Assembly (NCBI GenBank): GCA_039190745.1
Contig: JBCCXZ010000037.1
Coordinates: forward strand, 1 to 37,394
Direction: 5' to 3'
From: Planctomycetota bacterium
GTDB lineage: Bacteria > Planctomycetota > Planctomycetia > Pirellulales > Lacipirellulaceae
DNA length: 37,394 nucleotides
This document shows positions 9,182 through 30,088 of the stretch, in pieces. The position numbers and the translations under genes were made by a program. Below the pieces are notes generated by a model. That model did not search any database. It was not told the origin of the DNA and was given only the letters and a program-made list of their open reading frames with translations. Position 1 is the stretch's first letter. The number at the start of each line of letters is the position of its first letter.

Positions 9182-10492
9182 TCACAGATACTCATTAACG
9201 ACGTTCTCAAACAACTCCTGCCGCCCACTCTGGTTCGCCGCGGGGTTGCCCTTCTCAAGCATCAGCGCTTCCAGTGACGCAAATCCGTGCTCGCCCGCCT
9301 CAATCTGCGCGCCCAGACCCGAGTCCCAGTTTGCGTACCGATCAGCGACCATCGCCTCCAGCCGTCCGTCGGCACGCATCGCCGCGGCGGTCTTCAGTCC
9401 TCGCGCGAACGCATCCATCCCGCCGATGTGTGCGTAGAACAGGTCGATCGGCTCGAAGCTCTCGCGGCGGACCTTCGCGTCGAAGTTCACCCCGCCGGTG
9501 GTGAACCCGCCGTGCTTGAGGATCGAGTGCATACACTGGGTCGTGACGTACACGTCGGTCGGGAACTGGTCGGTATCCCACCCCAGCAGCATGTCCCCGG
9601 TGTTCGCGTCGATCGAGCCCAGGGCCCCCGCCGCTCCGGCCACCTCCAACTCGTGGTGCATCGTGTGCCCGGCGAGGGTTGCGTGGTTGGTCTCAAGATT
9701 CAGCTTGAAGTGGTCCAACAAGCCGAACTCACGCAAGAAGTTCAGGCATGCCGCCGCGTCGGTGTCGTACTGGTGCTTGGTCGGCTCTTTGGGCTTCGGC
9801 TCGATGTAGAATTGCCCCGTGAAGCCAATCTCTTTGGCGTAGTCGACCGCCATTTGTAAAAACCGCGCAAGGTGCTCCAACTCGCGTTTCAGGTCGGTGT
9901 TCCACAAACACTGGTACCCCTCGCGGCCGCCCCAGAAGGTGTAGCCCTCACCCCCCAGGCGGTGGGTGACCTCGATCGCCTTCTTCACCTGTCCCGCGGC
10001 GTAGGCGAACACCTCGCTATTGGAGCTCGTCGCCGCACCGTGCATGTATCGCGGGTGGCTGAACAGGTTGGCCGTGCCCCACAGCAGCTTCACGCCGGTG
10101 TTCTGCTGCTCCTGCTCCAGCACGTCGGCCACCGCGTCGAGGTTCGCGTGCGACTCGGCGAGCGTCGCCCCCTCGGGCGCCACGTCGCGGTCGTGGAAGG
10201 CGTAGTACGGCGCCCCCAGCTTCCGGATGAACTCGAAAGCCGCCCGCACGCGGTCTTGCGCGTTCTCGACCGACTCGCTGCCGTCGTCCCAAGGACGCAC
10301 CGCCGTGCCGGGGCCGAACGGGTCGCCCAGCGGGTTCCGGAACGTGTGCCAATAAACCACGCTGAACCGTAGGTGGTCCCGCATGCTCTTGCCTTCGACC
10401 AGTTCGCTCTCGTTGTAGTGATGAAACGCGAGCGGGTTGCGGCTCTCGGGGCCTTCAAAGGGGATGCGGTCGATCTCGGGGAAGGCGGTCAT
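9182..10492 (-). CDS. xylA: Xylose isomerase (class II)
   Basis: [74 protein letters not shown]; 436 aa from MTAFPEID. Confidence 0.97.
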
Positions 10493-10618
10493 TGCGAACT
10501 CTCGATGGCGAAAGGGGCGGTCTACGCCTGCCAGCGGCCGGCGGTCGCCCGCAATCCTACAAAAACGATGAGGCATCAGCATCCCCCCGAAAAAAGCCTC
10601 ACCGGTTAGCATGGCGGA

Positions 10619-10998
10619 ATGCTCGCTCGCTACAAAATCTACCGCGGCAAACGCCCCGAAAAAAAAACCTGCCCGACGGCGTCCGGCAAGACACGCGTAA
10701 GCACCCCCGGCATTTCCTCCGTCCCGACTCCGACGCGGTCGCCAGGTTCCTCGCCAACCCCGACGCCGCAGGCTGGGACCGTTTTGCAGACCACTACCGC
10801 GGTCTGCTCGCCGAACGCTTCCGGTAAGCCCGCACGCCCTTCGACGACTTGGCACGGCTTGCTGAGTCGCAGGACGTGTACCTGGGCTGCTCCTGCCCTA
10901 CCGCGAAGAACCCCGACGCGGACCACTGCCACACAGTCCTCGCCCTGCGCTTTTTCGAGCAACACTACCCGCGGCTCAAGGTGCGCCTGCCCGGCTGA
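10619..10998 (+). pseudogene. Disrupted DUF488/YeaO-like gene (frameshift in an A9 run plus in-frame TAA)
   Basis: [16 protein letters not shown] continues in the -1 frame as [21 protein letters not shown]...[74 protein letters not shown]; pattern LxP..W..F...Y...L..LxC..HCH resembles DUF488/YeaO. Confidence 0.7.
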
Positions 10999-12053: not shown

Positions 12054-12148
12054 GATTCACCGCAGAGGTCGCAACTAGTTCTGTAGGAGGCCTCTCCGAG
12101 GCCGATGACATTCACTTTCTCTCTGCGACCTCCGCGTCCTCTGCGGTT
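12054..12148. repeat. Intergenic inverted-repeat element enclosing a GTAG-type REP hairpin
   Basis: GATTCACCGCAGAGGTCGCA pairs with CTCTGCGACCTCCGCGTCCTCTGCGGTT; internal GTAGGAGGCCTCTCCGAGGCC; a related arm lies at 21640-21671. Confidence 0.65.
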
Positions 12149-12167
12149 CTTATCTGCTCAAAGAAAC

Positions 12168-13382
12168 ATGAAACTCCACCACGTCAAGCAGAACCTCGTC
12201 TCGGCGCCCATTGCCGACGTCGCCGCCGAGGTCCGCAAGCAGCTCGACACGCTCGACATCGATGTCCCCCAGGGCGAGGTGGCGATCACGTCCGGCAGCC
12301 GCGGCATCGCCAACATCGCCGCCATCACCCGCGCCGCCGGCGACTGGCTCCGCGACCACGGAGCCAAGCCCTTCATCGTCCCTGCGATGGGCTCCCACAA
12401 CGGGGCGACCGCCGAGGGCCAGCGGGCCATGATCGAATCGCTCGGCATCACCGAAGAGGCGATGGGCATGCCCATCCGCGCTTCGATGGACTGCGAAAAA
12501 ATCGGCGCCGTCGACACCGGTGACGTTTGGATGGACCGCCACTGCTACCACGCCGACGGCGTCCTCGTCCTCAACCGCGTCAAGCTGCACACATGCTTCT
12601 CTGGGCCCGTGCAGAGCGGGCTTACCAAGATGATGGTCGTTGGGATGGGCAAGATCCGCTCCGCCACTACCTTCCACTCCGCGCCCGTCTTCGAGATGAA
12701 GGATATGCTCCTTGAGATGGGCCAGCTGATCGTCGACTCCGGCAAGGTGTGGGCGGGCCTCGCCATCCTGGAAGACGGCTTCGACGAGACCGCCGAGCTG
12801 CACGCCATCCCCGCCGCCGAGATCCTCTCACGCGAACCCGACTTGGTCGATCGCCACCAAGACTACTTCCCCGCCCTGCCGTCGGACGACATCGGTGTGC
12901 TGATCGTCGACGAGATCGGCAAGACCTACAGCGGCACCGGCATGGACACCAACGTCATCGGCTACCGAGGAGTCCGCAATGGCGAAGACCTCTCCCAGCC
13001 CTGTATCGGCATCATCGGCGTCCTTGGTCTCTCTCAAGCCACCCAGGGCAACGCCTTCGGCATGGGCCTGGCCGACTTCTGCACACGCCGCCTCCGCGAC
13101 GCCGCCGACGAACGCAAGACCATGGTCAACGTCCTCGCCACCGGCGACATGCAGCGAATGCGCATCCCAGCCACTCTAGACGACGAAAAAGAGCTCGTAG
13201 AAGTCATCCGCGGCCGCTTCGGCGACGATCGCTGGATGTTCATCCCCAACACGCTCCACCTCGGCAGCCTGTACGTCACGCCCGACCTCGCCGACGAGCT
13301 CCGCGAGCACCCCCGCTGCGAAGTCGCCAACGAGCCGGTTGAGCTCGCCTTCGAGAACGGCCGCCACACGCTCGCCTTCTAA
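12168..13382 (+). CDS. LarA (lactate racemase) superfamily / DUF2088-type protein, substrate unknown
   Basis: VAITSGSRG, PAMGSH, NRVKLHT, SGLTK-x15-H and IGKTYSG align with the LarA catalytic His, cofactor Lys and Ni His positions. Confidence 0.8.
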   Translation: MKLHHVKQNLVSAPIADVAAEVRKQLDTLDIDVPQGEVAITSGSRGIANIAAITRAAGDWLRDHGAKPFIVPAMGSHNGATAEGQRAMIESLGITEEAMGMPIRASMDCEKIGAVDTGDVWMDRHCYHADGVLVLNRVKLHTCFSGPVQSGLTKMMVVGMGKIRSATTFHSAPVFEMKDMLLEMGQLIVDSGKVWAGLAILEDGFDETAELHAIPAAEILSREPDLVDRHQDYFPALPSDDIGVLIVDEIGKTYSGTGMDTNVIGYRGVRNGEDLSQPCIGIIGVLGLSQATQGNAFGMGLADFCTRRLRDAADERKTMVNVLATGDMQRMRIPATLDDEKELVEVIRGRFGDDRWMFIPNTLHLGSLYVTPDLADELREHPRCEVANEPVELAFENGRHTLAF

Positions 13383-21678: not shown

Positions 21679-23085
21679 TCAATCCACCGCTAGCCCCAGA
21701 TACTCTCGGGCATTCGAGTAACAAATTCCCCGCACCATCTGCCCAACGAGTGCATCGTCCGCCGGCAGGGCGCCACGCTCCATCTCCGCTCCCAAGAAGT
21801 CGCACAAACACCGCCGGAAGTACTCGTGCCGCGGGAACGACAAGAACGATCGCGAGTCGGTCAGCATCCCCACGAACCGCGAGAGCAGACCCAAGTTTGC
21901 AAGAGTACGCATCTGCTCGGTCATCCCGTCCCACTGATCGAGGAACCACCAGCCGCTCCCCCACTGCACCTTGCCCGGGGTCTCGCCGTCCTGGAAGTTC
22001 CCCGCCATCGAGGCGAACACGTGGTTGTGCGCCGGGTTGATGTTGTACAGGACCGTCTTCGGCAGCCGCCCTTCGAGATCCAGCTGCCCCAAATACCAGG
22101 AGAGCGTCTCCGCCTGCGGGCGGTCGCCGATCGAGTCGCACCCGATGTCCCGCCCCAGTGACCGATACAGCCTCAGGTTGTTGTTCCGCAGCGGCCCGAT
22201 GTGCAGCTGCTTCGTCCAGCCCCGCTCGGCGTCCCAGCGGCCGAACTCCAACATGAGGTAGGTTCCGAACCGCCGGTGCTCGTCCGGCGTCGCCGGCGTG
22301 CCGGCCAGCGCCGTCTGGAAGATCGCTGCCGCCTCTTGTTCCGTACACGGCGAAGCGAAGCACTGCTCCACCCCGTGGTCCGAGAGCCGGCACCCCGCCC
22401 CGTGAAACGCATCGTGCCGATGCTTGAGCGCACCGAGGAGCCCATCGATCGTACGGATCTCCTGCCCGGCGCGCTCGCCAAGCCGCCCCAGCCACGACCG
22501 CCATTCCTCCGGCTCGTCCACCCGCAACGCCGCGTCCGGCCGGAAAGTCGGGTACACCTTTGTCGCACAATCAGAAGCCGCGATCGCCTCGTGGTCCGCC
22601 AGATCGTCCGCCGGGTCGTCGGTCGAGCAAACCGCACGCACGCCGAACCGCTCCATCATCCCCCGGCACGTCATCCCGTCGGAAGCGAGCGTGGCGTTGG
22701 CCTGCTCCCAAACCTCCTCGGCGCTCGCTTCGCTGAGCAGCCCGTCGAAGCCGAAGTACCGCTTCAGCTCCAGGTGCGTCCAGTGGTACAGCGGGTTGCC
22801 CAGCGTCTGCGGCACGGTCCGCGCCCAAGCCAGGAACTTCTCCTTCGGCGCCGCGTCCCCCGTGCAAAGCCGCTCGGGCACGCCCGCGGTGCGCATCGCC
22901 CGCCACTTGTAGTGATCGCCCTCGAGCCACGCCTCGAACAGGTCGCCAAACCGGCGGTCCGCCGCGATATCGGCCGGAGGCAAGTGCGTGTGGTAATCCA
23001 GAATCGGCTCGTCCGCCGCGTACCCGTGGTACAGCCGCCGAGCCGCCTCAGTCTGGAGAAGGAAATCGTCTTGGATGAAGGTCAT
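21679..23085 (-). CDS. uxaC: Uronate (glucuronate) isomerase
   Basis: PILDYHTHL, GDHYKWRAMR, GNPLYHWTHLEL, STDDPAD, SDHG, QLHIGPLRNNN, GSGWWFLDQ, GMLTDSRSFLSFPRHEYFRR. Confidence 0.97.
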   Translation of the reverse strand: MTFIQDDFLLQTEAARRLYHGYAADEPILDYHTHLPPADIAADRRFGDLFEAWLEGDHYKWRAMRTAGVPERLCTGDAAPKEKFLAWARTVPQTLGNPLYHWTHLELKRYFGFDGLLSEASAEEVWEQANATLASDGMTCRGMMERFGVRAVCSTDDPADDLADHEAIAASDCATKVYPTFRPDAALRVDEPEEWRSWLGRLGERAGQEIRTIDGLLGALKHRHDAFHGAGCRLSDHGVEQCFASPCTEQEAAAIFQTALAGTPATPDEHRRFGTYLMLEFGRWDAERGWTKQLHIGPLRNNNLRLYRSLGRDIGCDSIGDRPQAETLSWYLGQLDLEGRLPKTVLYNINPAHNHVFASMAGNFQDGETPGKVQWGSGWWFLDQWDGMTEQMRTLANLGLLSRFVGMLTDSRSFLSFPRHEYFRRCLCDFLGAEMERGALPADDALVGQMVRGICYSNAREYLGLAVD

Positions 23086-23106
23086 GAGTACCGTTCTTCT
23101 CCGAGT

Positions 23107-23352
23107 TCACTCAGCCATCATAGAAAGCACCAGGTACGGCGTCAGGTTCAGCACAAAGATTGCCGTTTTGAACGCCGCCATCCCCGCGTAGTGGATCGCG
23201 TCAAACTGCTCTACGCTCACCCGGAACAGCCGCCCATGGAAGCGGTACATCCAATCGTGCGCCAGCCAGAAGAACCCGAGCCACCAAATCAACAACCCTG
23301 AGTTGATCAGCGCACACCAGCCGAAGAACTCACGCAACATTCCAGCGTCCAT
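23107..23352 (-). CDS. Small membrane protein, DUF6868-like
   Basis: FFGWCALINSGLLIWW...HDWMYRFHGRLF..SVEQFDAIHYAGMAAFK..IFVLNLTPYLVL; GGGGGTG RBS before ATG 23352. Confidence 0.75.
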   Translation of the reverse strand: MDAGMLREFFGWCALINSGLLIWWLGFFWLAHDWMYRFHGRLFRVSVEQFDAIHYAGMAAFKTAIFVLNLTPYLVLSMMAE

Positions 23353-23680
23353 CGCACACCCCCCGCGATCGCGTCCACAGAATTGAAAATGGCCACCCAA
23401 CATGATATACAGACGTTCATGTTCAGGCCGGTCCGCACCCAACTCCTTCCGCACTCCGCAATCCCCGATTTCTTGATGAACCAAGCCCGCAATCGAAAAA
23501 CTCGACACGTCCAGACGTAAACTCCAAATGTAAAGTCCGCATGGAACCAGCCGCGACGCTACGCATCGCGGGCAAACCCACGACCGGCCCGGACAAAACA
23601 ACGGACTTTTGGCGTATCGCCGCGTGTACCGGAATCCGTGCCTAAAGACAAAACCCCCGGCCTCTGGATCACAACGCCCG

Positions 23681-24490
23681 CTAGATCGTCGTCGCCGAGA
23701 ACCCGCCGTCCACCACCAGATTCTCCCCCGTCACAAACGACGAAGCCCGGTGCGAAGCCAGCCACACCACCGCCCCGGCCAACTCCTCGGCCTTGCCGAA
23801 CCGACGCATCGGCGTGTGCCCGATGATCTGCCCGCCCCGCTCCGAGTAGCTGCCGTCTTCGTTGTACAAGAGCGCCCGGTTCTGATCGGCCGGGAAGAAG
23901 CCCGGGCTGATCGCGTTCACCCGCACGCCCGCCTCGGCCCACTCCCGGGCCAAGAACCGCGTGAAGTTGATCACCGCCGCCTTCGCCGCCGAGTACCCCA
24001 CCACCCGCGACAGCGGCGTCATACCCGACATCGAAGCGATATGAATGATGCTACCCCGACCGGCCTTGACCATCGGCTTGCCGAACACCTGCGCCGGCAG
24101 CACCGCCCCGCCGATCAGATTCATGTCTACCACGTTGCGGAAGGCTTCGGTCGACATCCCGCAAAAGTCGGCCCCCGGCGGCAGCGTCGCCTCCGGCAAG
24201 TTACCCCCCGCGGCGCTCACCAGCACGTCGGCCGGTCCCAGCCGCTCGGCGATCGCGTCCCGCGCCTCGGCGAGCGAATCCGCACTCGTCGCGTCCGCCG
24301 CCTGGAACACCGCCGTGCAGCCGGCCTGCCCCAAGGCATCGACCCGCTGCGCCCCGCGCTCCGCGTTCCGGCCCACGACTGCCACTTTCGCACCGTGCGA
24401 GCCCAAGGCCTCGGCCATCGCCCCGCCCAACGCGCCGGTGCCGCCGATCACCACCGCCGTGCTGCCGGCCAAGTCAAACAGGTTCGCCAT
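23681..24490 (-). CDS. SDR oxidoreductase, D-mannonate/fructuronate oxidoreductase-like (SDR-type UxuB)
   Basis: GGTGALG, AAGGN, IASMSG, PLSRVVGYSAAKAAV (YxxxK), RVNAISPGFFPADQNRALL, HTPMRRFG; adjacent to uxaC. Confidence 0.85.
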   Translation of the reverse strand: MANLFDLAGSTAVVIGGTGALGGAMAEALGSHGAKVAVVGRNAERGAQRVDALGQAGCTAVFQAADATSADSLAEARDAIAERLGPADVLVSAAGGNLPEATLPPGADFCGMSTEAFRNVVDMNLIGGAVLPAQVFGKPMVKAGRGSIIHIASMSGMTPLSRVVGYSAAKAAVINFTRFLAREWAEAGVRVNAISPGFFPADQNRALLYNEDGSYSERGGQIIGHTPMRRFGKAEELAGAVVWLASHRASSFVTGENLVVDGGFSATTI

Positions 24491-24514
24491 GAGTCATTGA
24501 TTCCTAAACGCTTC

Positions 24515-26218
24515 CTAATCCGCGGCCTCGGGCTCTTCGCGGGTCAGCTGCACCGCGATGACCAGAGCCAAGTAAAGGCCGACCACCACCAGCCCCGCGT
24601 TGCCAGCCTTCTTCATGATGGCCGAGACGCCCGCGGCACTCGCCGCCGTCGCCGCCAGCCCCATCAGCACGTTCCACAACACACGTCGGCCCCCGGTCGG
24701 CAACTGATCGCCCAGCAGGCTCCGCTGATTCATCATCACGAAAAACGTGACGTAAGCGATCGGCAGCAGCATCGAGCCGAACACCCCGGCGACCACGGTC
24801 AGGTAGGCCTTCGCGTCGCCGTCTCCCCAAACCAACGGCCACAGCACGCCCACCGAGGCCAGCATGCACCCGCCCCGGAAGACCCAGCCCTCGGTCGGCT
24901 CGCCGAGCACCTCGCACACGACGAAACCCGAGATGAGCATCATCAGCGAGATCGAAGACAGCGTCATGCCGACCACGCCGATGCCGAACACGATGTTGGA
25001 AAAAACCCGTCCGTCGCTGTCCTCGTCCGCGAACAGCGTCTGCAGCGACTTGGCCAAGTCGAGCGTGTCACGCTTGCACAGCACCGCGGCCAAACGCTCC
25101 TCCGCAACGCCCGGGGCGCCGGCGATCCCGTACTCCTCCGCAGCGTCGTCACGGTTTTTCAGGTTCTTCGAAAAGGCCTTCTCAAACTGCGGAGGCGGCT
25201 CCACGTTCTCCTCCGACACGACAAAGCCGTCGGGAATCTGCGTGTGGAACTGCTGCGCTGAAGCGATCACCACGCAGCACGTCGCGATCACGAACGGGAT
25301 GAAGGTCCCGGTGGAGAGGTCGAAGATCGTCAGCCCCCGGAAGGCCCGGTCCCAGCCCCGCGACAGCAGCGAGTACGGCAGCAGGAAGGTCATGTTGATC
25401 CCCACGGCCGCCGCGCCCGCAGAGAGCATCACGTCGCGCTGCTGGCTCACAATTAAGTCCGACCAGTACGAGCGGGCAGCGGGGTCGGTCACCGCCTCCA
25501 ACAACGGAGCGAAAGTGGCCGACGGCTCGTAGAGGTGCTGCGGCTTGGGCACGAACCCGGCCAGCACCGCCCCCCAGTCCAACCCGGGCTCGACGCTCGC
25601 CATCCGGAGCACGACCCCGGCGAAGGAAACAACGATCAGCGCGACAACCAGCTTCAGCACAATCTCGTACAGCCGCACGCCCCAACTGCCGCTGCCGTAG
25701 CTCCAGGTCACAACCGTGCAGATGGCCAGCGCAACGAAGGAGACAAGCCACTTGCCCGCGTCGCTCGCCTGTGTGCCGTCGGAAAGGGGGCCGTCGCCCA
25801 GGAAGATGCTCGGCAGCAGGTTCTGCTCGCACACCGCAAAGCAGAGCGAGTACTGAGGCAGCACCCAGACCATGTTGGCCATCAGCGTAGCGGCCACCCA
25901 AGACCAACCCAGCACTGGGTTGATATGCCGATTAATCGCCTGCAGCGGCCGCTCATTAGTCGAAAGAGTCACGTAGCTGATCGCACTGAGCATGATGACG
26001 CCCAGCACCATCGCGAAGGGCTGCAGCCAGAGCAGGCTCGTGCCGGCCAAGATCCCCAGGTACAGGCTGCTGCCGAGCGACCCGCCGCCCAGCGTCAGCG
26101 CGCTCTGCAGCCAGCCCGGGCCCGAAAGCCTAAGGTAAGTGGTCAGCTTGCCGGCGCCGCCCCGCTCTTCGGCTGCGAGCAGCATCTGGCGTTCGGTTTC
26201 GAAGCGTTGGTCAGACAA
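24515..26218 (-). CDS. NRAMP/APC-fold membrane transporter (atypical)
   Basis: LSGPGWLQSALTLGGGS, SLLWLQ, WGAVLAGFVP, AVGINMTFLLPYSLL, MMNQRSLLGD; about 11 TM segments; canonical DPGN motif absent; TTG start. Confidence 0.8.
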   Translation of the reverse strand: MSDQRFETERQMLLAAEERGGAGKLTTYLRLSGPGWLQSALTLGGGSLGSSLYLGILAGTSLLWLQPFAMVLGVIMLSAISYVTLSTNERPLQAINRHINPVLGWSWVAATLMANMVWVLPQYSLCFAVCEQNLLPSIFLGDGPLSDGTQASDAGKWLVSFVALAICTVVTWSYGSGSWGVRLYEIVLKLVVALIVVSFAGVVLRMASVEPGLDWGAVLAGFVPKPQHLYEPSATFAPLLEAVTDPAARSYWSDLIVSQQRDVMLSAGAAAVGINMTFLLPYSLLSRGWDRAFRGLTIFDLSTGTFIPFVIATCCVVIASAQQFHTQIPDGFVVSEENVEPPPQFEKAFSKNLKNRDDAAEEYGIAGAPGVAEERLAAVLCKRDTLDLAKSLQTLFADEDSDGRVFSNIVFGIGVVGMTLSSISLMMLISGFVVCEVLGEPTEGWVFRGGCMLASVGVLWPLVWGDGDAKAYLTVVAGVFGSMLLPIAYVTFFVMMNQRSLLGDQLPTGGRRVLWNVLMGLAATAASAAGVSAIMKKAGNAGLVVVGLYLALVIAVQLTREEPEAAD

Positions 26219-26577
26219 GTTTCGTTTGCGTTCGCTGAGGGACAGGAGATGTGGGGAGAAGCAAGCCGCGGCTTGATTAGGGACAGCACCCAGTTACCAG
26301 TGCTGATCGCTCAATCCGTAGCGGCCGATTGTAGATGCTCACGACCACGTCGCAAGCGAAGCTTGGCTCCCCGTCGCGAACACGGTTCAATCACCCGACA
26401 GGATGGCAAGAAATCGGAATCTTGCGTCGCGATTCTTCTACCCACAAACCGATCGTCGCAGCCGATTGCGAATCCTACTAAGATAGGGCTTTGATCGGCC
26501 CAACTGGACAAGCAAACCTGCGCACCCCGGCCGCTTCCCGAAGCCGGGCCCAACACCGAGGCGCTCTCTAAAGACGT

Positions 26578-27900
26578 ATGACTACCGGAAACCTCCAAAC
26601 ACCCGCCTATGTGGGCGACTCGCCTTACGAGCTCGCGGTCGCCGACGCCAAACGGCCGATTGGGACGGCCGAGCTGCACAAGCACATCGACCGCTTGTTG
26701 GAACAATGGGTCCTCAAGGCCGGGGTCGAGCGGTTGCTGCTGCTGCCGCCCGATCACACTAGGCTCCATTCCTTTGCCGGCGAGATCACCCGCCACATTT
26801 GGCGCAGCGTCTCCGACCGCGTCTCGATCGACGTCATGCCGGCGGTCGGGACGCACTTCGCGATGAGCCCCGCGCAGCTGCACATGATGTTCGGCGACGA
26901 GATCCCCCTGGAGAGGTACAAGGTTCACGACTGGCGAAACGACCTGGCCGAACTCGGCGAGATACCGGCAGAGAAACTCACCGAGTTGTCGGGGGGGCGG
27001 ATGGAGATGCCCGTGAACGTCGCGGTCAATCGCCGACTCGTCAGCGGCGACTACGATCAGGTCCTCTCAATTGGCCAGGTCCTGCCGCACGAGGTGATCG
27101 GCTTTGCCAACCACGCCAAGAACGTGTGCGTCGGGGCCGGCGGAGCCGACCTTATCCACAAGTCGCACTACCTGGGCGCCGTTTGCAACATGGAGACCAT
27201 CCTCGGCCGGGCCGATACGCCCGTACGGCGGTTGATCGACACGGCCTTCTATGACTTCGTCAGGCCGCGGTGTGACGCCCGGTTTATCCTCACCGTGGTC
27301 GGCGGCACCGGCGCCGAGCCCGGCCTGCACGGCCTCATGGCGGGGCAAGACCGCGAGTGCTTCCGCAGGGCCGCCGAGCTGTCGGCAGAGCTGAACATTA
27401 GCCGGCTGCCGAAGCGGATCGACCGTTGCGTGGTGCACCTCGACCCGCGTGAGTTTTCTTCGACCTGGCTCGGCAACAAGTCGATCTACCGCACCCGCAT
27501 GGCCATGGCCGACGGCGGCGAACTCTATGTGCTCGCCCCAGGGATTGAGACCTTTGGAGAAGACCCGACCATCGACGAGTTGGTCCGCAAGCACGGCTAC
27601 CACGGCACGCCCCGGACGCTCGACGCGGTGGACTCCGACCCGAAGCTGATGGCCAATCTGTCGGCTGCGGCCCACCTGATCCACGGCTCGACCGAAGGGC
27701 GATTCTCCGTCACGTACTGCACCGGCGACGGGCTGAGCCGTCAAGAGGTCGAGGGCGTGGGCTACAACCACTTGCCGATCAGAGAAGCCCAGCGCAGGTT
27801 CGACGTGTCCGACAAGGCGGACGGGTGGCACACCGACGCGGCCGGTGAGCCGTTCTACTTCATCAACAACCCCGCGTTGGGGCTGTGGGCGGCCGATTGA
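26578..27900 (+). CDS. LarA-superfamily nickel-pincer epimerase, probable D-mannonate/D-gluconate 2-epimerase (GntE-like)
   Basis: PPDHTR, AVGTH, LPHEVIGFANHAK-x15-H, STWLGNKSIYRTRMA; divergent from the uxaC/SDR operon. Confidence 0.8.
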   Translation: MTTGNLQTPAYVGDSPYELAVADAKRPIGTAELHKHIDRLLEQWVLKAGVERLLLLPPDHTRLHSFAGEITRHIWRSVSDRVSIDVMPAVGTHFAMSPAQLHMMFGDEIPLERYKVHDWRNDLAELGEIPAEKLTELSGGRMEMPVNVAVNRRLVSGDYDQVLSIGQVLPHEVIGFANHAKNVCVGAGGADLIHKSHYLGAVCNMETILGRADTPVRRLIDTAFYDFVRPRCDARFILTVVGGTGAEPGLHGLMAGQDRECFRRAAELSAELNISRLPKRIDRCVVHLDPREFSSTWLGNKSIYRTRMAMADGGELYVLAPGIETFGEDPTIDELVRKHGYHGTPRTLDAVDSDPKLMANLSAAAHLIHGSTEGRFSVTYCTGDGLSRQEVEGVGYNHLPIREAQRRFDVSDKADGWHTDAAGEPFYFINNPALGLWAAD

Positions 27901-27945: not shown

Positions 27946-28992
27946 CTAGGAGGAAATCTTCACCGCGCGGCCGGACGAGGCGGACTTGTAAACGGCATTG
28001 ATCACCTCAACCGAACGGCGGCCTTCGTGGCCGTCAATCGCCGGCGGCCGGTCGTTCTTGATGGCCGAAACGAAGTCCTTGAACAACAGGGCGTGGGCGT
28101 GGTGGCCGATCGCGGCCGGGTCGGATGCCCCGCCGCCGGAGCTCTTGGACTTCTTCATCGACTCGAGGATCGCCGCGTCGCCCCGGCCTCGCTTGGCGAA
28201 GTCCCATTTGATGATGTCCTCTTCTTCGAGGACCGCGGTTCCCCCGATTCCGTGCAGCTCGATCCGCTTGAGATAACCGGGGTAGACCGCCGTGGAGGCC
28301 TCGAGCACTCCAAGGGCGCCGTTCTCGAAGCGGAGGATCGCTGTGGCAACGTCTTCGACCTCGATCCGCTCGTGGGCGAGGGTCGCGGTGTGCGCCCTTA
28401 CCTCCGTGACCGGGCCCATGAGCCAGAGGAGCAGGTCGACGGTGTGGATGGCTTGGTTCATCAGGGCGCCGCCGCCGTCGAGTTTCCACGTGCCCCGCCA
28501 GGCTCCGCTGTGGTAATACTCTTGCGATCGGTACCACTTCACGTAGGCGTCGCCGAGGGTCAGCTTTCCAAAGCGTCCCGCGTTTACCGCCTTCTTCATG
28601 GCGATCGACGAATCATGGAACCGAGAGGGGAAGATCGTGGCCAGCTTGACTCCGTTCTTCTCGCAGGCGGCGATGATGCGGTCGCAGCGGCGGGTCGTCA
28701 CTTCGAGCGGCTTCTCGACAACGACGTGCTTGCCGGCTTCCGCAGCCGCGACCGCGGGTTCGAGGTGTACGCCGCTGGGCGTGGCGACGGAGACCACGTC
28801 GACTTGGTCGTCTTTCATCAAGTCTTTGATGTTGACGTATTCGGCGCAGTCGTGCTCTGCGGCGAACTTCACCGCGGCTTCAGGGTTGCGGTCGCAACAA
28901 GCCACCAGCTTGGCGCCACGAACCTCAGCAAGGGCCCGCGCATGAAACGTGCTGATCATGCCGGTGCCGACGATAGCGAATCCAAGGGCCAT
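27946..28992 (-). CDS. Gfo/Idh/MocA family oxidoreductase (cytoplasmic)
   Basis: FAIVGTGMIS, VATPSGVH, GKHVVVEKP, WRGTWKLDGGGALMNQAIHTVD. Confidence 0.93.
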   Translation of the reverse strand: MALGFAIVGTGMISTFHARALAEVRGAKLVACCDRNPEAAVKFAAEHDCAEYVNIKDLMKDDQVDVVSVATPSGVHLEPAVAAAEAGKHVVVEKPLEVTTRRCDRIIAACEKNGVKLATIFPSRFHDSSIAMKKAVNAGRFGKLTLGDAYVKWYRSQEYYHSGAWRGTWKLDGGGALMNQAIHTVDLLLWLMGPVTEVRAHTATLAHERIEVEDVATAILRFENGALGVLEASTAVYPGYLKRIELHGIGGTAVLEEEDIIKWDFAKRGRGDAAILESMKKSKSSGGGASDPAAIGHHAHALLFKDFVSAIKNDRPPAIDGHEGRRSVEVINAVYKSASSGRAVKISS

Positions 28993-29140: not shown

Positions 29141-29971
29141 TCAGCGGCCGGTCGCGGCGAGTAGATTGGAGAGGCTCTCCCGAGCAACGGCCTCTCCACT
29201 CGGCTCGTAGCGGAAAGGCTCGACCGAGACCCAGCCGTCGTAGCCGGTCTCGGTGAGTGCGGTCATGATCGGCTCAAGGTCGATGTCGCCCATCCCCGGG
29301 CCGAGAAGGTTCGGGTCGTTGGCGTGGAAGTGAGCGGTCCAATCGGCGAAGTCTTGGATGATGTCGCTGATGGGGGTCGGCTCGCTGGCCATGGCTTTGA
29401 TGTCGAGGTGCAGCCGGCAACTCGGCGAGCCGACGCTTTGGGCGAGCCGTACCGCAGCGGAGGCTGTATTCAAGAAATCACCCTCGGCCGGCCCCAGTGG
29501 TTCGAGCGCAAGGGTCAAGCCGCGGTCTTCGAGTTCGGGAGTGACTCTGCGGAGGACTTCGGCGGCGTACTCCTCTGCCTGTGCGTGCGACACGCCCGGC
29601 AGCAGATTCCGCTGTTGCGGCGAGCCCAGCACGAGAACCTTGCCACCTAGCTGATCGCAGAGCCGAGCGAGTGCGAGGAAGTACTCGGCGGTTCGTTCTC
29701 TCACGGCGGAGTCGGGGCTCGTCAGGTACAGCCCGGAGGTTTTCGCGAGGAGCCAGTGCAGGCCGATAATCTCGAGCCCTTCTGCCCGAGCCGCGTCTCG
29801 GGCCTCGTTGACCGCCGCTTCGCTGAGCTTGCGGACATCCGAAGTCTCTTCTCCAGGCTGCAGCGTGAACGGGGCCACTTCTAGCCCGGTGTAGCCCATG
29901 CTCGCGGCGGAGCGGCAGCTCTCTACGAACGAAAGGCCTTCGAAGACTTCGTTGCAGATGGCGAAACGCAT
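29141..29971 (-). CDS. Sugar phosphate isomerase/epimerase (AP-endonuclease-2 TIM barrel, ketose 3-epimerase-like)
   Basis: MRFAICNEVF, GYTGLEVAP, LALEPL, LHLDIKAM, HFHAND, GPGMG, YDGWVSVEPF. Confidence 0.9.
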   Translation of the reverse strand: MRFAICNEVFEGLSFVESCRSAASMGYTGLEVAPFTLQPGEETSDVRKLSEAAVNEARDAARAEGLEIIGLHWLLAKTSGLYLTSPDSAVRERTAEYFLALARLCDQLGGKVLVLGSPQQRNLLPGVSHAQAEEYAAEVLRRVTPELEDRGLTLALEPLGPAEGDFLNTASAAVRLAQSVGSPSCRLHLDIKAMASEPTPISDIIQDFADWTAHFHANDPNLLGPGMGDIDLEPIMTALTETGYDGWVSVEPFRYEPSGEAVARESLSNLLAATGR

Positions 29972-30088
29972 CGTTTTGTGAAGATCAGGAAACTTGGCGG
30001 GTATTCCGGTATCCGTGGGCAACACGGCCGGCTGTGCGAAGTATATTGGGCGGCTTCTAGACAAACAACTAAGCGGGGTGCATCAGAG

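Follow-up and report, generated by a model that had tools for sequence, protein, structure and literature searches.

We analysed a 37,394-nucleotide stretch of DNA (contig JBCCXZ010000037.1, called the window below) from a planctomycete of the family Lacipirellulaceae. In this window, the gene for a LarA homologue, a putative nickel-dependent hexonate 2-epimerase, lies divergent from an operon that contains uxaC, the gene for glucuronate isomerase. With a probability of about 0.6, glucuronate in this organism is expected to reach the pentose-phosphate pathway by way of mannonate and gluconate. In the proposed shunt, UxaC would isomerize glucuronate to fructuronate, a short-chain dehydrogenase/reductase (SDR) would convert fructuronate to D-mannonate, the LarA homologue most likely would invert C2 of D-mannonate to form D-gluconate, and gluconate would be phosphorylated and then enter the pentose-phosphate pathway via 6-phosphogluconate dehydrogenase (Gnd). 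For the epimerase substrate, the kinase, and the importer, the assignments are ones that we infer. The enzyme family is a catalogued one, and the locus is not a new system; within this genome, the shunt is apparently the sole route. The genome, of 3.89 Mb, is 95.47% complete in 125 contigs, and the window is its contig C37. The GC content of the window is 60-68%, and the best named homologues of its proteins are from Botrimarina, Lacipirellulaceae, and Phycisphaerae, which marks it as DNA of a Pirellulales-type planctomycete.

Genes were called from the list of open reading frames (ORFs) and the Pfam and NCBIfam profile libraries. An earlier reading of this DNA from its letters alone (the sequence-only reading) had placed a transporter gene, an SDR gene, a DUF6868-like gene, uxaC, and a divergent LarA-family gene here, and Pfam or NCBIfam matches were indeed obtained for all five at those places (Table 1). 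It had also stated that UxuA, KdgK, Eda, and LarB, LarC, and LarE were not encoded in the window, and none of these was found among the 29 window ORFs scanned. The SDR scored above the cut-off of NF006132, "D-mannonate oxidoreductase", gluconate 5-dehydrogenase models remained below their own cut-offs on this protein, and it resembles TM0441 of Thermotoga maritima (1VL8, E 1.1e-31).

The LarA homologue showed a score of 547.5 bits with NF052594, "nickel-dependent putative hexonate epimerase", the curated cut-off of which is 500, and the next-best LarA family model gave only 49.3 bits. The Lar_N domain (PF09861) was also detected with 40.7 bits against a cut-off of 23.3. The protein thus belongs to the family predicted to act on a hexonate, in agreement with the sequence-only reading. 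By sequence, the sole solved relative was 4NAR, GntE2 of T. maritima (E 2.7e-28, 102 bits, residues 48-376). In this alignment, D59, R62, H93, H171, K181, H197, and K301 corresponded to D38, R41, the His of the GTH motif, H154, K164, H180, and K287 of GntE2; G91-T92-H93 fell on the GTH motif, P170-H171 and N300-K301 were aligned as well, and the spacing of the central motif was H171-x9-K181-x15-H197. All seven catalytic or nickel-pincer nucleotide (NPN)-binding positions did not vary among 25 aligned family members, and the earlier statement that the LarA catalytic positions are retained was therefore borne out. The family comprises at least 8000 proteins at E <= 1e-20 (among 8000 candidates scored), species-representative genomes contain no fewer than 600 stretches that match it, and databases annotate it as "lactate racemase domain-containing protein".

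Desguin 2020 (PMC7583248) named D72, R75, H108, H174, K184, H200, and K298 as the catalytic or NPN-binding residues of LarA. The same paper described the signature of LarA homologue (LarAH) groups 18-20 as a loop E-V/S after the catalytic His, a Trp in helix alpha-11, and A/V in helix alpha-14. The first two of these three features are seen in the window enzyme, in which E172-V173 follows His171 and W297 is found four residues before Lys301. Conversion between D-mannonate and D-gluconate in vitro has been shown for groups 19 and 20 (PMC7583248), and a survey from 2024 added LarAH15 and, weakly, LarAH10 as mannonate epimerases (PMC11770544). For group 18, to which the window enzyme belongs, only "a hexonate" was predicted as the substrate, and mannonate was doubted as the native substrate of group 19 (PMC7583248).

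Subsequently, the neighbourhoods of related epimerases were compared using the 80 best loci, which came from eight or more phyla (37 of at least 20 kb and 20 of less than 10 kb). Their ORFs were clustered, the cluster representatives were annotated, and neighbours were counted within 10 kb of the epimerase. Gnd was found in 37/80 loci, an SDR in 33, UxaC in 28, and UxaE in 22, so that UxaC or UxaE was present in 37 loci; a long-chain mannitol-type dehydrogenase (8/80), LarB (6/80), and LarC (5/80) were less frequent. A kinase was adjacent or fused to the epimerase in 40 loci (PfkB 28, GntK 7, ROK 5), and two types never occurred in one locus. Typical orders were SDR-UxaC-PfkB-LarA, MtlDH-GntK-LarA-LarC-LarB-Gnd, and PfkB-LarA-(PdxB-like)-Gnd-UxaE. 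Since an SDR, UxaC, UxaE, Gnd, or a sugar-acid kinase was present in 64/80 loci and none of them in the other 16, the gene arrangement in the window is not a matter of chance.

Furthermore, seven of the 120 best homologues listed carried an N-terminal gluconokinase domain of the GntK/IdnK type (TIGR01313 173.9 bits, cut-off 113.75), and one such fusion, with a LarA part of 65% identity, was found in a genome of the same family. These fusions indicate that gluconate is one reaction partner. From the context and the fusions, the window LarA homologue is expected to interconvert D-mannonate and D-gluconate. SDRs 66-68% identical to the window SDR adjoin the closest LarA orthologues. The Gfo/Idh/MocA (GFO) oxidoreductase and the TIM-barrel protein encoded convergently with the window epimerase also have homologues beside LarA orthologues in loci L010 and L155 (TIM barrel, 63% and 67% identity, respectively). 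The best match of the TIM barrel was weak (IolO, 5-keto-L-gluconate epimerase, 86 bits, cut-off 300), and these two genes may form a feeder branch into the shunt.

Two further features of these neighbourhoods were observed. A gene for a PdxB-like dehydrogenase (2-Hacid_dh + DUF3410), whose family takes its name from the oxidation of a phosphorylated 2-hydroxy acid, separates the epimerase gene from gnd in 18/80 loci, nearly all from Bacteroidota (L020, L021, L024, L038, L039, L047, L056, L058, L072, L073, L078, L080, L084, L087, and others); in L060 (Spirochaetaceae), the PdxB-like gene is located elsewhere in the locus. In five Acidobacteriaceae loci (L030, L044, L045, L057, and L088), a ROK kinase follows UxaC-LarA. 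Its best NCBIfam match was polyphosphate-glucose phosphotransferase (110.5 bits, cut-off 250), and it is a third candidate type of hexonate kinase, at the place where other lineages have PfkB or GntK.

A tree of 92 LarA sequences was constructed by a quick method (LG+G4), for which only ORFs of at least 380 aa were kept and the rows were cut to the last 425 residues, removing ORF extensions and fused domains. The window LarA fell into a clade of six rows (SH-aLRT 100), which included two gluconokinase fusions, a Botrimarina gene with PfkB and an SDR in divergent orientation, and an orthologue neighboured by both an SDR and an Nramp-like carrier. The enclosing clade of 15 rows (SH-aLRT 99) consisted entirely of Planctomycetota, with SDR, UxaC, PfkB, or GntK as neighbours. 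The planctomycete subclade of the window, including its gluconokinase fusions, scored 529-547 bits on NF052594.

We also examined co-occurrence by sampling 301 genomes evenly from the phylum, and counted UxuA as full-length at 370 bits or more. The epimerase was over its cut-off in 33/301 genomes and UxaC was present in 51/301, with both in 27; that is, UxaC was found in 27/33 genomes with the epimerase versus 24/268 without it. In the 27 genomes with both, any Pfam UxuA match was observed in six and a full-length UxuA in one, against eight and six (four from one genus), respectively, in the 24 UxaC genomes without the epimerase. Many planctomycete UxuA matches were partial, at about profile positions 170-350. 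A genome with the epimerase thus mostly has UxaC and no UxuA, but this contrast, which was seen among related genomes, is a modest one. The anti-correlation with UxuA that the sequence-only reading had proposed to look for is real, yet weak. In a sample of 11 genomes of the window's own family, the epimerase was found in 10, Eda in nine, and GntK in one, where it is fused to the epimerase.

The lower pathway was then searched for in the whole genome. UxuA, UxaA, and Eda were not found in the genome either with the profiles (PF03786, PF04295, and PF01081, respectively) or by tblastn with the proteins of a classical planctomycete operon (G047), as the sequence-only reading had anticipated for UxuA, and UxaB was not found in the genome. 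The sole IlvD/Edd-family gene is a clear IlvD. Two other enzymes were considered and gained no support: for an archaeal-type KD(P)G aldolase, there was one DHDPS-family gene only, which scored like the best copy of relatives; for a ManD-type mannonate dehydratase, neither of two enolase-superfamily matches was ManD-like (one is DgcA-like, beside DgcN, and the other, of 483 aa, had no NCBIfam match at 1e-8). Gnd was detected with 725 bits, beside Zwf on contig C29. Because the Entner-Doudoroff and 2-keto-3-deoxygluconate (KDG) exits are unavailable, 6-phosphogluconate and Gnd constitute the only visible exit. The earlier suggestion that mannonate is epimerised to gluconate and carried onward is therefore supported for the pentose-phosphate branch, on the evidence of family, neighbourhoods, fusions, and gene content, and falls for the Entner-Doudoroff branch, for which there is no Eda and only IlvD. 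The genes expected for NPN synthesis are all present above their cut-offs, as the sequence-only reading had suggested checking: LarB (NF033503, 271.6 bits, cut-off 175), LarC (TIGR00299, 223.7 bits, cut-off 90), and LarE (TIGR00268, 306.1 bits, cut-off 150), on contigs C67, C27, and C59, respectively.

The entry through a known gluconate kinase, which had also been suggested, did not hold: neither known type was found in the genome. No gluconokinase of the GntK/IdnK type was detected in the genome with TIGR01313 or by tblastn with the fused kinase domains, and the only FGGY kinase in the genome is XylB-like (257 bits, below the cut-off of 380), with 48.8 bits on TIGR01314, the cut-off of which is 648. 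Two PfkB-family genes are present, a ribokinase-like copy on C5 and a KdgK-like copy at C3:32965-34050. The C3 PfkB is 73% identical to a Botrimarina PfkB encoded 163 bp from the epimerase there. A tree of PfkB proteins was constructed by a careful method (1/32 ORFs, of less than 300 aa, was dropped). Two KdgKs verified by context (that of the G047 operon and that of a PfkB-Eda pair in G129) formed a clade with support 100/98, which also held the second PfkB copies of five loci, and the C3 copy, the Botrimarina copy, and all epimerase-adjacent copies were placed outside it, in at least two other clades. In the 11 family genomes, each of the nine copies sharing 70% identity or more with the C3 PfkB was located away from Eda, and nine copies at 33-47% identity were near Eda (8 within 250 bp); the genome with the GntK fusion had no PfkB match. 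The tree and the pattern of Eda linkage support a paralogue that has left the KdgK role, and the chance that this KdgK-derived C3 PfkB is the shunt kinase is roughly even. About 0.8 kb from this gene, we observed an FGGY kinase-PdxA pair (C3:29646-32150, + strand), in which the FGGY stop codon overlaps the start of the PdxA-family dehydrogenase gene (350.9 bits).

The transporter gene of the sequence-only reading proved to be a carrier gene with a weak Nramp match, and its product appears to have the Nramp fold without the metal ligands. In the Atlas, by features and predicted structure, the carrier was located near Nramp clusters of Planctomycetota and Verrucomicrobiota (TM 0.86-0.93), and phmmer against the PDB sequences gave no match at E <= 1. 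In an alignment with Escherichia coli MntH, DPGN was replaced by GGGS and M-P-H by L-P-Y in 4/4 members of the carrier clade. We take these DPGN and MPH positions, on helices 1 and 6, to be the metal ligands of the Slc11/Nramp importers. Homologues of the carrier are encoded directly after the epimerase in a Phycisphaerae locus (L029) and in a genome of the family (L154). In addition, a paralogue of 71% identity is encoded at C12:54910-56613 (+), 77 bp downstream of another SDR gene; this C12 SDR is glucose 1-dehydrogenase-like (211 bits), and the two form a second carrier-SDR pair in the genome. In the window genome and in two relatives, the neighbour of the carrier is the epimerase or an SDR, which suggests a sugar acid as the substrate; the carrier is most likely a sugar-acid (uronate) importer. 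A role as a nickel importer was considered, as the carrier adjoins the epimerase in three loci, and was judged less likely because the metal ligands are replaced and the 71% paralogue has an unrelated SDR as its partner.

Divergence at the metal-binding site was described in Cellier 2023 (PMC10606218) for an "orphan outgroup" of PF01566. The window carrier is similar to this outgroup in its Nramp fold, and the positions of the MntH Asp, Asn, and Met are replaced in it; the excerpt of that paper gives no substrate for the outgroup, whereas the window carrier has epimerase and SDR neighbours. The DUF6868-like gene, for its part, was confirmed by PF21742 and did not hold as a component of the pathway: UxaC, an SDR, or the carrier was found within 1.5 kb of it in 0/23 other loci, and DUF6868 occurs in 22/121 genomes of the class, including a family with UxaC in 0/16 sampled genomes. 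It is a bystander. Within the ORF 23107-23601, the domain is confined to residues 84-162, and the gene is therefore most likely the shorter one given in Table 1.

The fuller version of the proposal, in which the nickel shunt is the sole glucuronate route, the PfkB paralogue is its hexonate kinase, and the Nramp-fold carrier is its uronate importer, is tentative and less likely than not, and the following observations weigh against the route via mannonate and gluconate itself. The genome has no recognised gluconokinase, and the candidate PfkB is encoded on another contig, is below all NCBIfam cut-offs, and has the KDG kinase of T. maritima (2AFB, E 1e-50) as its best solved relative. Furthermore, the only genome of the same genus in the sample (G409, 92% complete) keeps two orthologues of the C3 PfkB (92% and 75%) without the group 18 epimerase or UxaC, and therefore the C3 PfkB is not dedicated to the shunt; this genome also has two Eda-PfkB pairs, and with the epimerase and UxaC both absent from it, the shunt is variable within the genus. 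The difference in full-length UxuA described above is based on 1/27 versus 6/24 genomes, and four of the six are from one genus. UxuA and Eda are each neighbours of the epimerase (within 10 kb) in 3/80 loci. In many cases, the shunt stands alongside the classical route and does not supplant it. An Eda-family aldolase was found in 27/33 epimerase-bearing genomes of the phylum sample; its absence is thus not a general trait of epimerase carriers, and only a few genomes, that of the window among them, have lost the aldolase. Of the genome, 4.5% is unassembled.

In the family sample, UxaC accompanied the epimerase in only 4/10 genomes, and six genomes carried a separate NF052594-positive clade with no hexuronate genes nearby (L148, L149, and L151 in G407, G410, and G405, and L147, L150, and L152). 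The members of this clade scored 620-638 bits, above the score of the window enzyme, and a DAO-type FAD oxidoreductase is encoded directly upstream in three of the six; in a seventh family genome (G412), the epimerase stood apart on a long branch. The epimerase family is therefore not uniform in context, and the separate clade and the few UxaC genes lower our confidence that every family member uses uronate-derived mannonate. In the literature searched, as far as it was available, no assay of any group 18 member was found, and neither "LarAH18" nor "group 18" appears in the available main text of the 2024 survey (PMC11770544).

Three other explanations were weighed. In one of them, the order of the last two steps is reversed: PfkB phosphorylates D-mannonate, and the LarA homologue acts as a 6-phospho-D-mannonate 2-epimerase to form 6-phosphogluconate. 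This order was measured in extracts of Lactobacillus suebicus, which showed no direct conversion of mannonate to gluconate and whose proteome contains a GntE homologue (Valk 2020, PMC6978723). It is also consistent with the high Km for free mannonate of GntE1, GntE2, and LarAH15 (120, 17, and 9.4 mM, respectively; PMC7583248, PMC11770544), with the kinases fused or adjacent to the epimerase in half of the loci (40/80), and with the PdxB-like dehydrogenase between the epimerase and gnd in 18/80, the family of which is named for a phosphorylated 2-hydroxy acid. However, free mannonate is turned over at 197 per second by GntE2 and at 111 per second by LarAH15 (PMC7583248, PMC11770544), the kinases in seven loci and seven fusion proteins belong to the GntK/IdnK gluconokinase subfamily, and E. 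coli GntK does not accept mannonate, as cited in Valk 2020 (PMC6978723). We regard the kinase-first order as less likely, and epimerisation of free mannonate as the preferred sequence of steps.

The epimerase might instead act on another hexonate or sugar acid, such as L-gulonate/L-idonate or a product of the GFO and TIM-barrel proteins, with only a loose functional link to uxaC. Six of the ten epimerase-bearing family genomes, including those with the two closest orthologues (G406 and G411), are without UxaC, the GFO and TIM-barrel genes are conserved beside the closest orthologues, and the published predictions for groups 18 and 19 cited above (PMC7583248) leave room for such a substrate. 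Across phyla, however, UxaC or UxaE is a neighbour in 37/80 loci and Gnd also in 37/80, UxaC is present in 27/33 epimerase-bearing genomes of the phylum sample, the adjacent SDR is over the mannonate-oxidoreductase cut-off, and the gluconokinase fusions indicate gluconate as a reaction partner; another substrate is accordingly rather improbable. It is more improbable still, to the point of being remote, that a classical pathway of UxuA or ManD, KdgK, and Eda is hidden in the unassembled 4.5% and carries the flux, with the C3 PfkB as the KDG kinase and the epimerase as an accessory or side route. The completeness of 95.47% in 125 contigs, the Eda in 9/10 other family genomes, and the nearest solved relative of the C3 PfkB, a KDG kinase, speak for it. 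Against it, the gaps would need to contain no fewer than four independent genes, namely those for UxuA, UxaA, Eda, and the Eda-linked KdgK paralogue, the PfkB that has been kept is the paralogue never next to Eda in relatives, and the hidden Markov model profile searches and tblastn agree. The route to the pentose-phosphate pathway by way of mannonate and gluconate thus remains our preferred reading.

A branch from mannonate to gluconate was proposed for T. maritima in 2012 by Rodionova, as later papers report (PMC6978723, PMC7583248, PMC5673643). Compared with the GntE2 (group 20)/UxaD/GntK system of that organism, the window enzyme belongs to the same superfamily with the same catalytic and NPN-binding residues, and the logic is the same: UxaC, an SDR reductase, a C2 epimerase, a kinase, and Gnd. 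On the other hand, the window enzyme belongs to another LarAH group, the genome has no gluconokinase of the FGGY type or the GntK type, and its route genes are split over three contigs, unlike those of T. maritima. T. maritima has UxuA and Eda, as a control search showed, and the window genome has neither. From LarAH group 18/NF052594, there is no difference in kind; the window protein is a member of a lower-scoring planctomycete subclade. The sequence-only reading had regarded the locus as the best candidate for an undescribed system. This cannot be maintained, because the route was proposed in 2012, the activity has been shown for the sister groups 19 and 20, and NCBIfam has named the group 18 family.

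In L. suebicus, Valk 2020 described a kinase followed by a 6-phosphomannonate epimerase in extracts, without naming the genes (PMC6978723). Both that route and the one proposed here join an upper isomerase pathway to 6-phosphogluconate without UxuA, KdgK, or Eda activity, and a redox-neutral entry to ribulose-5-phosphate is common to the two; the L. suebicus route has the kinase first and a phosphoketolase exit (PMC6978723), whereas the route proposed here has a pentose-phosphate exit. Our search for literature on a mannonate kinase or 6-phosphomannonate found only Valk 2020, and a search on LarA, Planctomycetes, and glucuronate found no relevant paper, judged from titles and abstract openings. 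With the classical Ashwell pathway (UxaC, UxuB, UxuA, KdgK, and Eda), the window genome shares UxaC and an SDR-type fructuronate reductase. A complete classical operon of one planctomycete (G047, locus L123) has the order Eda-UxaC-PfkB-UxaB-UxaA-SDR-UxuA, and the PfkB of the window genome is a paralogue of its KdgK; the searches of the window genome recovered none of UxuA, UxaA, UxaB, Eda, and the Eda-linked KdgK paralogue.

Table 1. Features of the window discussed in the text. Positions are counted from the first nucleotide of the 37,394-nucleotide window.
Feature	Position	Strand	Evidence and remarks
uxaC, glucuronate (uronate) isomerase, 468 aa	21679-23085	-	PF02614 628.6 bits; NF002794 587.1 bits, cut-off 387
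DUF6868 small membrane protein, 81 aa	23107-23352	-	PF21742 115.3 bits
SDR, predicted fructuronate reductase/D-mannonate oxidoreductase (UxuB/UxaD function)	23681-24490	-	NF006132 338.1 bits, cut-off 281
Nramp-fold carrier, 567 aa, first gene of the divergent operon	24515-26218	-	PF01566 41.1 bits, residues 406-504 only
Divergent intergenic region, 359 bp, between the carrier-SDR-DUF6868-uxaC operon and the epimerase gene	26219-26577		
LarA homologue group 18, putative NPN/nickel-pincer-dependent hexonate 2-epimerase, 440 aa	26578-27900	+	NF052594; Lar_N
Gfo/Idh/MocA oxidoreductase	27946-28992	-	Pfam and NCBIfam; convergent with the epimerase
Xylose-isomerase-like TIM-barrel protein	29141-30064	-	Pfam and NCBIfam; convergent with the epimerase
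xylA	9182-10855	-	TIGR02630 713.7 bits
Second LarA homologue, 425 aa, group 22	12105-13382	+	NF052515 "NPN-dependent isomerase, group 22" 445.5 bits, cut-off 400

In the divergent intergenic region, no regulator gene adjoins, and one promoter-like site was observed on the - strand at 26355-26328. The numbers of promoter-like sites (2 versus 0.9 +/- 1.0 expected) and terminator-like sites (9 versus 5.9 +/- 2.5 expected) were not above chance, and two 10-nt palindromes in the region were no better than chance. Elsewhere in the window, the xylA gene that had been mentioned as nearby was identified. Its ORF encodes 557 aa, the xylose isomerase model matched only from residue 125, and the first start codon probably precedes the real one by about 120 codons. 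The sequence-only reading had correctly recognised the LarA homologue beside the carrier operon and had omitted the second one, of group 22, which lies about 1.2 kb from xylA. A third LarA homologue, unclassified with a best NCBIfam score of 48.7 bits, is encoded at C60:13853-15019 (-), and the genome thus has three NPN-type enzymes.

If the proposed route is true, uronate use in this planctomycete depends on nickel, and the shunt would lead uronic acids to ribulose-5-phosphate without the dehydratase and aldolase steps. Standard pathway tools would score this organism as a glucuronate non-user, and the annotation as a lactate racemase domain-containing protein masks the function of an epimerase family that is widespread, with more than 600 genome stretches. 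If the kinase-first order is true instead, a PfkB "mannonate kinase" and a LarA-type 6-phosphomannonate 2-epimerase may give genes to the orphan activities of Valk 2020. Because neither a competing classical route nor a canonical gluconokinase was found in the window genome, it is a clean test case for the substrate of group 18, the order of kinase and epimerase, the LarA-associated PfkB paralogues, and the substrate of Nramp carriers without the metal site.

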